Positions 21,012-24,110 of a DNA stretch of 64,000 nucleotides are shown one piece after another. The translations under genes were made by a program, and so were the position numbers. The stretch comes from Escherichia phage MiataMamis, in sequence record PP925834.1. One strand, written 5' to 3'. Below the pieces are notes generated by a model that saw only the letters and a program-made list of their open reading frames with translations, searched no databases and had not been told where the DNA came from. Numbering within the stretch: position 1 is the first letter of the stretch; each line of letters begins with the position of its first letter.

Positions 21012-22055
21012 TTAAGCATAAGATATAGTGATCCATTGACCATTTACAAGTTTTTGGATAGCACCTGTCCAGTAATCACCTTGATAAGGGTGTTTATAAG
21101 CGTAGTTACCCGAGCACATCACATGTCCAGGGTAAACTCTTGACTCTCTGTAGGTGGTTTTGAAACGGTTTGCTATCCTCACATCATCAACCCCTCTGCT
21201 GGGCATAGGAACAGTAAGGTTACCACTACCGTCTGCGCTGTTACCATTTACCCTGCGGACCACGTTTCTTCCACCAACTGTTGCATATTGGCCCCTGACG
21301 GTTTCATCGTTACAATCAACTCTTCCACCTATTTGAGCGCTTCCACAGGATTGTTGTCCATTAACAGTGGCTCTTGGTATAGTAGCTGCATTGGCATTTG
21401 TAGAGGAACTTTTTGCGTCGTTGCATTCAAGATTTCCTTGGATAGCCAGTCTTGCACGGTTGGCAGTTATAGCATTGAGCTTCATAGCTGAAAACACAGG
21501 CTGCCCACCAGAAGGTTGAAATCTCCAACGGAAACCGTCTATTTGGTGAGAGGGATCATCAAGGTCTGTGCCGTCAGCACCACCGATGTTGTCCATAATC
21601 CAGAAATCCATCATCGTCTTGTCTGAAGTTATGGTGGTGTATATCGCCGCACTGTCTGTTGACGCGGATGCAAACTCGATTCTTTGAAGACCTAAAGTTT
21701 GAGTCTGGATCATTGTGTCTCCAGCCTTGTCAACATAAAGGTCATCCATTTCTTCAGGCGAGTATACATTGAGAACTTGACGTGCAGCAGCTTTGTCTGG
21801 AACGTCTGCCAGATTATTAGTGACCCTTAAGAATCTATTATCCCATCCTGGGACAACATCTTCTGTTAAATGCTTTAACCACGCAGAAAGCATGTGAAGT
21901 TCAAAGTTAACAACTTCACATGCCACTCTTTGTGTCATATCCCAACCTTTCAGTCTCTCTTCTTTTTTTGGTTGGGACTTATTCAATTCTCCCGTATTTT
22001 CAAGCACAACATCCTGATTGGCCCAAATATCAAGAGGGATAACTGGTTTAGTCAT
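21012..22055 (-). CDS. tail fibre protein, paralog 2
   Basis: Paralogous to 23070..24110 (shared N-terminal PL(D/E)IWA and GDTM motifs, shared C-terminal QKLVNGQWIT); start set at ATG 22055 with GGAG SD. Confidence 0.7.
   Translation of the reverse strand: MTKPVIPLDIWANQDVVLENTGELNKSQPKKEERLKGWDMTQRVACEVVNFELHMLSAWLKHLTEDVVPGWDNRFLRVTNNLADVPDKAAARQVLNVYSPEEMDDLYVDKAGDTMIQTQTLGLQRIEFASASTDSAAIYTTITSDKTMMDFWIMDNIGGADGTDLDDPSHQIDGFRWRFQPSGGQPVFSAMKLNAITANRARLAIQGNLECNDAKSSSTNANAATIPRATVNGQQSCGSAQIGGRVDCNDETVRGQYATVGGRNVVRRVNGNSADGSGNLTVPMPSRGVDDVRIANRFKTTYRESRVYPGHVMCSGNYAYKHPYQGDYWTGAIQKLVNGQWITISYA
21027..21056 (-). repeat. 30-bp exact direct repeat at 3' end of tail-fibre paralog 2
   Basis: agtgatccattgaccatttacaagtttttg identical to 23074..23103; encodes QKLVNGQWIT. 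Confidence 0.85.
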
Positions 22056-22085
22056 CACGTTCTCCTGAGAAAATTCCTTAGGACT

Positions 22086-22114
22086 ATTTTAACACTTTAG
22101 TGAACAAAATGCAA
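22086..22114 (-). promoter_or_regulatory. sigma70-like promoter with extended -10 (TTGCAT-N17-TGnTAAAAT)
   Basis: Read on minus strand upstream of tail-fibre paralog 2. Confidence 0.4.
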
Positions 22115-22144
22115 GAACGGAGTCCTTTCCGTCCTGACCTTTGT

Positions 22145-22459
22145 TTACCTTTTGCTATGCTCTACAAGCATGTGCAAAATCTTTTGTACATCAGCTCTGA
22201 TGCCGGAGACATCTGTCCTAACATCCTGCTTAAGGTCGTTAATATCGGCCTCTAGCTTGCTTAACCGGGTCTCGATAATAGAATCAAGTTTATCTTTTGT
22301 AACCATACTGTTTTTCACTAAGATGAGGTCTTTCTCCAGTTCATCCAACCTCTTGGAAATGCCTTTCCATTTGGTGTGCCACTGGTTGAAAGCCCATACA
22401 CAGATCGGGACAACGGTACCCATGCAGATACCGTACAATGCCGCCAAATCCAACTCCAC
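22145..22459 (-). CDS. membrane-anchored coiled-coil protein (104 aa)
   Basis: N-terminal hydrophobic segment LAALYGICMGTVVPICVWAF followed by a charged helical region. Confidence 0.45.
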   Translation of the reverse strand: MELDLAALYGICMGTVVPICVWAFNQWHTKWKGISKRLDELEKDLILVKNSMVTKDKLDSIIETRLSKLEADINDLKQDVRTDVSGIRADVQKILHMLVEHSKR

Positions 22460-22470
22460 AACACCTCCTC

Positions 22471-23055
22471 TTAGAGGGTAGGTCGCTCCGGGAAGAAAAT
22501 GTCAGGGGCTTTAGATGTATCTATTTCAAGAAGTTTTACCCTGTACATTTTCAAATCTCTGATGTTACGTTTCTGGTCATCAGTAAGATCATATTCAAGG
22601 TCAATCATGTCTTGATAGGCACCAATTCTAGCAGTAGCCCAAGCAAGTTCTGTCTCTATGACACCCTCTGCCTGTTGAACAAAGAATTCATTGTCTGTGA
22701 CAAATTCATCACCAACTAAACGCAAAGCGTCGTGGTGAAGCATAATGTTTTCTGGTACCTCTTCTTTTTTGGCGATAACCACACGAAGACCTGGAGCAGG
22801 CCATAGGGCATCAGGTTCTTCTGTAGATGTCTTAAGAATTCCCTTCTCGTCAACAAGTAGGAAGATACAACCCGGATTTTCTTGTCGTAATGTTCGTGAC
22901 TGCACATACCAATCGCCATCATCATTACGTAAAAAATACCCAGTGTATGCGGTGTAATCCTCAACCTCTTGAGGGGTCAGCTCCTTGGTTCCCTTGTTAG
23001 GGTGGTATTCGCCAGATCCCGGTTGGTAAAGTTTAAACTCTTGAAGTATTTTCAT
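22471..23055 (-). CDS. tail fibre assembly protein (Tfa-like chaperone)
   Basis: 194 aa immediately downstream of a tail-fibre gene; resembles the P2 G / lambda Tfa / Mu U family. Confidence 0.65.
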   Translation of the reverse strand: MKILQEFKLYQPGSGEYHPNKGTKELTPQEVEDYTAYTGYFLRNDDGDWYVQSRTLRQENPGCIFLLVDEKGILKTSTEEPDALWPAPGLRVVIAKKEEVPENIMLHHDALRLVGDEFVTDNEFFVQQAEGVIETELAWATARIGAYQDMIDLEYDLTDDQKRNIRDLKMYRVKLLEIDTSKAPDIFFPERPTL

Positions 23056-23069
23056 GCTAGTCCTCCGAT

Positions 23070-24110
23070 CTATGCATAATTAACAGTGATCCATTGACCA
23101 TTTACAAGTTTTTGTAAAGGTCCTGCCCAGTAGGTTGAACCACGCATCTCTTTTTTGTCACCGAAATGCCAGCCTGTGACAACGTAGCCGTTGCGAATTG
23201 GAGATTCAGAAACGCCGTCAACAAGTCTTGCACCGATTCTGATGTCTTGCACACCTGTCTGCGGGATAGTGATTGTTACATCACCGTTACCGTTAGCCGT
23301 CACCCCATTCACAGAGCGCACCACATTTCTGTTACCGACAACACAGTGCTGGCTCCTTACAACCATGCTGTCACAACTTGCACCACCATTAACATATACT
23401 GACCCAGCCGTCAACTGACTAGCCACATTACAGTTGGTGAATGTTGCTGTATTGCTGATAGTAAGGTTATTGCACCTCATGTTATCGACAACTTCAACAT
23501 TGCCTACCACTTTCAACAGCGCACGGTTAGCCGTGATCGCGTTAAGGTACATCAAAGTGAACTCTGGATTAATATCCGGCTGAGTTGGCTGGAATCTCCA
23601 ACGGAACGCATCTACTGTAGATGTACCACCATCATCAAACGACCCGGTATTATCACTTAACCCAAAGTCGAGAGTTGTCTTATCTGGGCCAATAGTTGTC
23701 TCTATCCAAGCCTTATCTGTCTCGGCAGCTTTAAAGTTGATACGTTGCAAACCCAAGGGGCCTGTCATTGTATCACCTGTAACTTTTACATACCTGGCGT
23801 CTGCCTCTTCCTTAGTAATAATCCCAAGGTTTCTACGGGCAACAGGGATGTTCAAAAGATCACTCAAGTTATTATCACGTACCAGATAACGACCTTCTTG
23901 AGCGGGGATCTGCTCGTCAGCAATGTATTTTGCCCAAGTTCCGAGCATATTGAAAATATAGTTAAGTTCTTCACATGAGGGCTTTTGACCAAGATCCCAA
24001 CCTTTTCTCCACAAATCATCAATCGGGCGTAGCCTGTTCTGTCTGTGGGTGTTAGGCAGAACCTGATCCTCCTCTGCCCAAATCTCTAATGGAAAACTAG
24101 GTTTTGACAT
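23070..24110 (-). CDS. tail fibre protein, paralog 1
   Basis: 346 aa; KVTGDTMTGPL collar-like motif; GGAG SD; followed by Tfa. Confidence 0.7.
   Translation of the reverse strand: MSKPSFPLEIWAEEDQVLPNTHRQNRLRPIDDLWRKGWDLGQKPSCEELNYIFNMLGTWAKYIADEQIPAQEGRYLVRDNNLSDLLNIPVARRNLGIITKEEADARYVKVTGDTMTGPLGLQRINFKAAETDKAWIETTIGPDKTTLDFGLSDNTGSFDDGGTSTVDAFRWRFQPTQPDINPEFTLMYLNAITANRALLKVVGNVEVVDNMRCNNLTISNTATFTNCNVASQLTAGSVYVNGGASCDSMVVRSQHCVVGNRNVVRSVNGVTANGNGDVTITIPQTGVQDIRIGARLVDGVSESPIRNGYVVTGWHFGDKKEMRGSTYWAGPLQKLVNGQWITVNYA
23074..23103 (-). repeat. 30-bp exact direct repeat at 3' end of tail-fibre paralog 1
   Basis: Identical to 21027..21056. Confidence 0.85.

Follow-up and report, generated by a model that had tools for sequence, protein, structure and literature searches.

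Escherichia phage MiataMamis (sequence record PP925834.1), of which a stretch of 64,000 nucleotides was analysed here (hereafter the window), carries two paralogous short tail fibre genes, A and B, whose protein products both end with the decapeptide QKLVNGQWIT, encoded in both genes by the same 30-nucleotide (nt) sequence, CAAAAACTTGTAAATGGTCAATGGATCACT. Comparison of the two genes with their counterparts in other lineages suggests that this block evolves in concert, by gene conversion between the paralogs, rather than as a conserved DNA or RNA signal, a reading to which we would attach a probability of about 0.75. The 30-mer is a real, statistically solid and ordinary recombination footprint in a known module.

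The window was assigned to Vequintavirus (rV5-like coliphage) and is 97–99% identical to published genomes. In rV5 the orthologues of A and B are gp33 and gp30, and both the paralogy of the two fibres and the presence of a single chaperone, gp32, have already been published, in 2013 and 2021. In the first of these papers the gp30 and gp33 proteins are given as 42.3% identical, two lipopolysaccharide (LPS) chemotypes are proposed as possibly being recognised, and gp30, gp32 and gp33 are all listed as detected in the virion proteome of rV5 (Kropinski et al. 2013; PMC3606486). The second treats the same rV5-like short-tail-fibre locus (Maffei et al. 2021; PMC8594841, S5D Fig). In the passages of the two papers that were consulted, the identical 30-nt block and the concerted evolution of the 3′ ends appear to go unreported.

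A shared 30-nucleotide block in two diverged fibre genes

The A and B proteins are 43% identical (BLASTP 3e-95) and their genes 50% identical at the DNA level. A is 99–100% identical to the protein annotated as ‘short tail fiber’ in the rV5 group. B aligns to A along its full length, with a set of invariant anchors in common; its N-terminal domain is diverged, its tip is strongly diverged (33% identical to the A tip) and the terminal motif is retained. Setting aside the last 15 residues, the similarity between the two proteins is highest in residues 116–205 (55%) and lowest in the distal third, residues 206–331 (33–36%). An earlier note on this DNA had recognised the two paralogs, the shared decapeptide and the identical 30-mer, all of which are borne out here, but its description of the central regions as different was inexact, as the figures just given make plain. 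Its length of 346 amino acids (aa) for A also stands; the 348 aa that it gave for B assumes a GTG start at 22058, and the start is most likely the ATG at 22055 (347 aa, as in the rV5 annotation), which has AGGAGA 5 nt upstream.

There are exactly two copies of the 30-mer in the window, even when three mismatches are allowed, and these lie on the same strand as direct repeats. Both copies stop 12 nt (four codons) short of the stop codon of their gene. The copy in B was correctly placed by the earlier note, whereas its position for the copy in A (23074..23103) was 11 nt off (see Table 1 for the correct position). The 30-mer forms the exact core of a longer, imperfect direct repeat of 62 nt, the two copies of which are spaced 2058 nt apart.

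Several measures set the block apart from the remainder of the two genes. At residues that are identical in the two proteins, the same codon is used at nine of nine positions in the block versus 43 of 128 elsewhere in the pair (binomial 5e-5). The nucleotide alignment of the two genes that the earlier note had proposed gives the 30-nt run as the longest exact match, the next longest being 14 nt. We also carried out a simulation in which both proteins and their alignment were held fixed and all codons were redrawn from the codon usage of the locus. In 20,000 trials the median longest exact run was 11 nt and a run of at least 30 nt was seen twice only. The identity of the two 30-mers is non-random.

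At the protein level, both fibres close with the motif P-[LI]-Q-K-L-V-N-G-Q-W-I-T. Related decapeptides are found at the ends of the fibres of Av-05 (QYLVNGQWVT), a PVP-SE1-like Salmonella phage, GAP31, phiTE and an unrelated 42-kb viral contig, and the termini of the S and S′ proteins of phage Mu read P-[VI]-Q-x-x-I-N-G-T-W. That related versions close the fibres of so many other phages shows the decapeptide to be under strong protein-level constraint. Metagenomes scanned for the decapeptide in any codon version gave 11 stretches, and all 11 belong to lineages already encountered.

The architecture of A can be predicted at both ends. Residues 1–108 match the short tail fibre of phiTE (9cuy; 9cuy_c residues 1–111) with E = 1.4e-19, and in the phiTE fibre N-terminal residues 3–92 dock on baseplate wedge protein 1 (PMC11972413). 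A is thus predicted to carry an N-terminal baseplate-wedge docking domain. At the other end, the last 58 residues of A (286–343) match residues 440–501 of Mu S (5yvq_A), with E = 1.7e-6 when the full-length protein is used as query and 2.3e-4 when the tip is used alone; the match to 8ju3 (Mu S/S′) has E = 0.09. On this evidence A ends in a Mu GpS-like C-terminal tip. For B, residues 2–84 match phrog_12846 at 3e-11 and a PDB sequence search with the tip alone yielded no significant match to Mu S. A homolog search with B returned eight clusters only, too shallow a set for modelling, yet one that led to a divergent lineage of importance below. An AlphaFold2 model of B built from a 10-sequence alignment was unusable for fold comparison (predicted local distance difference test score, pLDDT, of 32; predicted template modelling score, pTM, of 0.20). 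In this low-confidence model two strands flank the NG of the terminal motif.

Probable concerted evolution across lineages and competing explanations

The evidence that carries the gene conversion reading comes from a divergent lineage (L020–L022), found via a homolog of B (P0002) that is 78% identical to the window protein. The locus is collinear with that in the window, and the A and B genes are 75% and 70% identical, respectively, to those of the window at the nucleotide level. In L020 and L022 both paralogs carry CAAAAACTGGTCAATGGTCAGTGGATCAC, a 29-nt exact run that reads CAA AAA CTG GTC AAT GGT CAG TGG ATC AC. Three synonymous positions set it apart from the rV5 block, and all three differences are common to both copies; the A copy of L021 has one further difference (CTT). 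Within a genome the paralogs match at nine of nine codons of the block in the window and eight of nine in L020 (p = 9e-4). Orthologs compared across the two lineages agree at only five and six of nine codons, which is indistinguishable from the background of 38–41%. When alignment columns are classified four ways, the block contains three concerted, five invariant and no orthologous columns, as against five concerted and 15 orthologous columns in the rest of the gene. It is this pattern, synonymous variants that match within a genome and differ between lineages at the background rate, that points to concerted evolution.

Among Vequintavirus genomes themselves the block is widespread and variable. 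A search of phage records with the 3.5-kb region gave 116 matching records, with at least 80% of the query covered in 113 of these and best matches that are all at least 90% identical (rV5, 97.9%; vB_EcoM-Pr121LW, 99.1%). Around 66 of the 116 records keep both exact copies of the 30-mer, which was found in 173 places in 107 records. Elsewhere the copies have drifted: FV3-like phages have two to three of the 30 nt of B changed, including a replacement of L by F, L007 has two nt changed in the A block and rV5_ev158 has a one-base synonymous variant (AAC), again in the A block. The block would seem, on these comparisons, to be under no special nucleotide constraint. The near-identity is older than the Vequintavirus radiation, and it is polymorphic. 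The earlier note had spoken of recent gene conversion; conversion is supported, by the block shared in L020–L022 and by the L015 tract described below, and ‘recent’ holds in part only, given the age of the near-identity and its retention in about 66 of 116 records. On either side of the block each paralog keeps residues of its own, GPL...VNYA in A and GAI...ISYA in B, throughout the four Vequintavirus lineages.

A different picture is seen in an uncultured sister lineage, L010/L015, known from IMG/VR sample 3300045988 (contigs of 118–140 kb) and without a megablast match in the phage collection. The locus (L010 7634..10778; L015 6151..9289) comprises two short fibre genes, A′ and B′, and one gene for a Tfa chaperone (205 aa in L010). 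Here the paralog blocks differ at six to seven nt and it is the tip just upstream that has been homogenised: the whole tip (~58 aa) is 78% identical in amino acid sequence between the L010 paralogs, compared with 33% in the window. In L015, A′ has a tract of ~95 nt, identical to B′, whose end falls inside the block; the tract is shorter in L014 and absent from L010. Taken together with the homogenised or decayed blocks of the other lineages, the tracts of the sister lineage argue that conversion between the 3′ ends is recurrent and that the extent of the converted tract varies. B and B′ share derived N-terminal signatures (51–66% identity, compared with 37–46% to A-type fibres). These shared signatures place the A/B duplication before the split between the rV5-like and L010/L015 lineages.

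We propose that the identical 30 nt are the mark left by recurrent, short-tract, non-reciprocal recombination (gene conversion) between the 3′ ends of A and B. With paralog-specific flanks on either side, conversions that spill into those flanks would change the protein and be removed by selection, leaving 30 nt as the visible tract. Identity over ~30 nt may itself favour further exchange, so that the block would be kept homogenised until mutations break it, as in the FV3-like phages.

A number of points weigh against this proposal. Conversion is deduced from patterns of sequence rather than from observed events, and its concerted signal is carried by one divergent lineage, at three synonymous sites, together with the L015 tracts. 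For homologous recombination, 30 nt would be a very short tract to survive, and the selective pruning invoked to account for it is an inference. Moreover, the process would be intermittent at best, since the block is not homogenised in the FV3-like, L007-like and L010-like lineages. On sequence alone, finally, the identity might also, though improbably, reflect selection for the nucleotides as such.

The earlier note offered, in addition to conversion, the idea of a recombination hotspot for the exchange of receptor-binding cassettes. On this reading the block would be a joint where a paralog trades its tip for that of its partner or of another phage. In keeping with this, the L015 conversion tract ends inside the block and the whole tip of B′ (~58 aa) has been replaced by an A′-like tip in L010/L015. 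There is also a patch of ~140 nt in the window (20936..21074, covering the end of B and the start of gp29) that is identical to L007 in surroundings that are ~12% divergent, and which starts ~20 nt upstream of the B block; the patch points to recent exchange between lineages. Chimeric junctions, however, were not found: neither in IMG/VR nor in the ~116 phage genomes is there an A-flank/block/B-flank arrangement or its reciprocal. Nor was cassette swapping at the 30-mer seen in related phages. In FV3-like phages, where a 3′ segment of B is divergent, that segment continues through the block and does not stop there. An imported B tip was considered and dropped, as tblastn revealed no relative of the tip with more than 44% identity outside Vequintavirus, and hence no sign of import. 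Finally, because the repeats are direct, the loss of the Tfa gene, gp31 and most of B would follow from any crossover between them. We regard a role for the block as a swapping joint as improbable.

What of a cis-acting nucleic-acid signal, such as a binding site for protein or RNA, a translational pause or a promoter element, present in both genes or their mRNAs and kept there by selection? The identity does extend to every wobble position, both copies lie 12 nt before a stop with the ribosome-binding site of the next gene close behind, and a sequence that differs between two lineages yet is common to both copies within each genome is what a co-evolving signal would give. Against this, the block has changed between lineages at the ordinary synonymous rate and many viable phages have copies that are not identical. 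No third or complementary copy is present in the 64-kb window with three mismatches allowed, the 30-mer lacks structure (−3.3 kcal/mol, z = −0.9) and its two contexts fold differently, and the block gave neither an Rfam match nor, on the minus strand, a sigma-70-like site. Such a signal is, in our view, highly improbable. Simple coincidence, in the form of a strongly conserved peptide combined with codon bias, is scarcely credible: the peptide is indeed deeply conserved and at three of its ten positions the codon is the one most often used at the locus for that amino acid, but the probability that all codons match under locus codon usage is 1.2e-4, the redrawing of codons reached 30 nt in just the two trials mentioned above, and within-genome identity recurs with different codons in L020.

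Two kinds of programmed variation were also considered and rejected. An invertase-switched cassette of the Mu Gin or P1 Cin type does not fit 30-mers that are direct repeats, a single Tfa and an absence of significant inverted repeats (just two, of 14–15 nt and at chance level, were found in 18900..26300), although an invertase gene was not itself searched for. A diversity-generating retroelement would call for a repeat pair of about 100–150 nt that differs at adenines of the template; here the core is only 30 nt long and is identical in the two copies, whilst the 62-nt extension differs at paralog-specific codons, not at adenines; a reverse transcriptase was likewise not searched for.

Across the locus, Vequintavirus genomes differ from one another chiefly towards the 3′ ends of A and B (window 23700..23160 and 21421..21002) and in the 5′ part of the Tfa gene (23039..22800), where the fibre-binding N-terminal domain of the chaperone is encoded. 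Hardly any change is seen in the 5′ parts of A and B or in the 3′ part of the Tfa gene. As most of the changes are synonymous, this distribution looks like a recombination mosaic.

The single chaperone and the neighbouring genes

The features of the locus are collected in Table 1. Gene order is collinear with gp27–gp36 of rV5 and with the BASEL phage JohannBauhin, and all of the genes are on the minus strand.

Table 1 Features of the short tail fibre locus and late-promoter motifs in the window (rV5 gene names in brackets; ORF, open reading frame)
Feature	Position	Strand	Basis
690-aa N4-gp65-like fibre (gp34)	24123..26195	minus	PF23845
Short tail fibre paralog A, 346 aa (gp33 ortholog)	23070..24110	minus	ORF; phrog_4465 at 1.8e-171
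Tfa chaperone, 194 aa (gp32)	22471..23055	minus	PF02413 1.3e-11; phrog_136 at 3.6e-36
104-aa protein (gp31)	22145..22459	minus	ORF; phrog_5345 (unknown function) at 8e-49
Terminator-like hairpin with T-rich tail, between gp31 and B	22114..22135	minus	consensus scan only
rV5 late-promoter motif TGTTAAAATA (published P030), directly upstream of B	22085..22094	minus	motif match
Short tail fibre paralog B, 347 aa (gp30 ortholog)	21012..22055	minus	ORF; phrog_4465 at 8e-164
88-aa membrane protein (gp29)	20734..21000	minus	phrog_1322 at 2.7e-32
Lateral fibre genes (gp28, gp27)	18979..20724, 13294..18930	minus	ORFs, phrog matches
30-mer copy 1 (QKLVNGQWIT, A residues 333–342)	23085..23114	minus	exact match
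30-mer copy 2 (QKLVNGQWIT, B residues 334–343)	21027..21056	minus	exact match
62-nt direct repeat, exact 30-mer as core	21013..21074 and 23071..23132	minus	repeat search, 84% identical
TGKTAAAATA late-promoter motif copies	22085..22094, 28416..28425, 33927..33936, 49037..49046, 52558..52567	minus	

The gene that begins 15 nt past the stop codon of A encodes the Tfa chaperone, as the earlier note had it: residues 122–192, the C-terminal domain, match PF02413 (Caudo_TAP) with 45.2 bits against a gathering cut-off of 22.1. It is the only Tfa in the genome. No second match was found among the ORFs of the window, and tblastn (E up to 0.01) places Tfa homologs at exactly one position in each Vequintavirus record. 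In Tfa proteins a variable N-terminal domain binds the fibre tip and a conserved C-terminal domain drives trimerisation, according to the passage of PMC9608196 that summarises North et al. 2019.

The Tfa gene is separated from gene B by the gene for the 104-aa protein gp31, a terminator-like hairpin and a late-promoter motif. The gp31 protein has a hydrophobic N-terminal segment followed by a coiled-coil-like region, and its gene is kept beside the Tfa gene in relatives with one fibre. The hairpin, AGGACGGAAAGGACTCCGTTCT plus a T-rich tail, is missing from the published list of rV5 terminators. The promoter motif corresponds to late promoter P030, placed upstream of gene 30 in Table S4 of PMC3606486. 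Copies of the motif TGKTAAAATA number five in the window, compared with 0.36 expected, and all five are on the minus strand, which is the coding strand of the structural genes. Because the published P030 motif, at 22085, stands before gene B, B heads its own late transcription unit.

The earlier note had paired B with a small hydrophobic protein encoded after it. An 88-aa membrane protein is indeed encoded there, but its gene is also present in Av-05, PVP-SE1-like and GAP31 phages, all of which are without B, and it is thus a syntenic bystander and not a B-specific partner. The order of genes in Av-05, the PVP-SE1-like Salmonella phage and GAP31 is single short fibre, Tfa, 104-aa protein, 157-aa membrane protein, 88-aa membrane protein and lateral fibre; in rV5-like phages gene B sits where these relatives carry the 157-aa gene. 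The region encoding the small membrane proteins in single-fibre relatives spans 7638..8701 in L003, 7686..8755 in L004 and 7650..8719 in L005. A 140-aa ORF found after B′ in L010 was considered as a counterpart of the Av-05 157-aa gene and rejected, there being no homology between the two.

Upstream of A, the 690-aa gene encodes a protein with a Calx-beta domain together with the N-terminal and TIM-barrel domains of the N4-type non-contractile tail sheath protein, and the literature ties its fibre to the enterobacterial common antigen (ECA)/N4 glycan receptor. The wider region (window 20700..24200) is also 97.9% identical to 16–21 unannotated GenBank records (MG0656xx) labelled as ‘Campylobacter phage’ (host C. 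jejuni). The host label of these records appears doubtful, with contamination or mislabelling being possible.

How might a single chaperone serve a virion into which both fibres are built? B, expressed from its own late promoter, would either make use of gp32 in trans or fold without it. It is possible, though on balance unlikely, that the shared terminal motif, which probably forms a strand, an NG turn and a second strand, acts as a docking element for gp32 on both fibres, with conversion selected because it keeps both tips compatible with Tfa. Were the motif to act as a docking element, the L010/L015 lineage, with the whole B′ tip overwritten by the A tip and a single Tfa, would be an extreme case.

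Comparison with known systems

The closest described system is that of rV5 itself: gp30, gp33 and gp32 form the same locus, at 97–99% nucleotide identity. Gene conversion between duplicated genes has a familiar precedent in the bacterial tufA and tufB genes, which undergo concerted evolution by this route with the whole of the gene being homogenised. Like tuf, the fibre paralogs of one genome resemble each other at synonymous sites more closely than do orthologs from different genomes. Unlike in tuf, homogenisation of the fibre genes is confined to the 30-nt block (in the sister lineage it covers from ~95 nt up to the entire tip), and the rest of the pair stands at 50% nucleotide identity.

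In T-even phages the distal fibre and adhesin genes gp37 and gp38 are reported by Tetart and colleagues (1998) to recombine at conserved motifs, with exchanges between phages swapping adhesin specificity. The likeness to the rV5-like locus lies in short, protein-constrained blocks within diverged fibre genes that provide islands of homology for recombination. The difference is that exchange in the rV5-like phages would take place between paralogs in one genome and homogenise the conserved block itself.

Phage Mu offers a further comparison, with its tail fibre GpS/GpS′ and the chaperones GpU/GpU′ (PDB 5YVQ, 8JU3; North et al. 2019, summarised in PMC9608196). The likeness here extends to the homology of the A tip, the terminal motif and a chaperone of the Tfa family, and also to the finding of the chaperone in virions (rV5 gp32). 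Mu has one fibre gene with two tips, which alternate as Gin inverts the DNA between inverted repeats, and a separate Tfa goes with each tip. The rV5-like locus, by contrast, has two complete fibre genes that are expressed together, repeats that are direct and a single Tfa.

The present results make an addition of modest importance to a known module: the tip-coding ends of the two fibre genes exchange sequence within the genome. For phylogenies of fibre tips this means that paralog and ortholog signal is mixed at the tip-coding ends, and for fibre engineering that the chaperone gene lies between direct repeats of 30 nt, a possible route to deletions. A further question is whether two diverged Mu-like tips can share one Tfa. 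Were Tfa to dock on the terminal motif that the fibres have in common, one trans-acting Tfa would act on two unlike receptor-binding tips by way of the same C-terminal tag, which would be a useful rule for the design of chimeric fibres.

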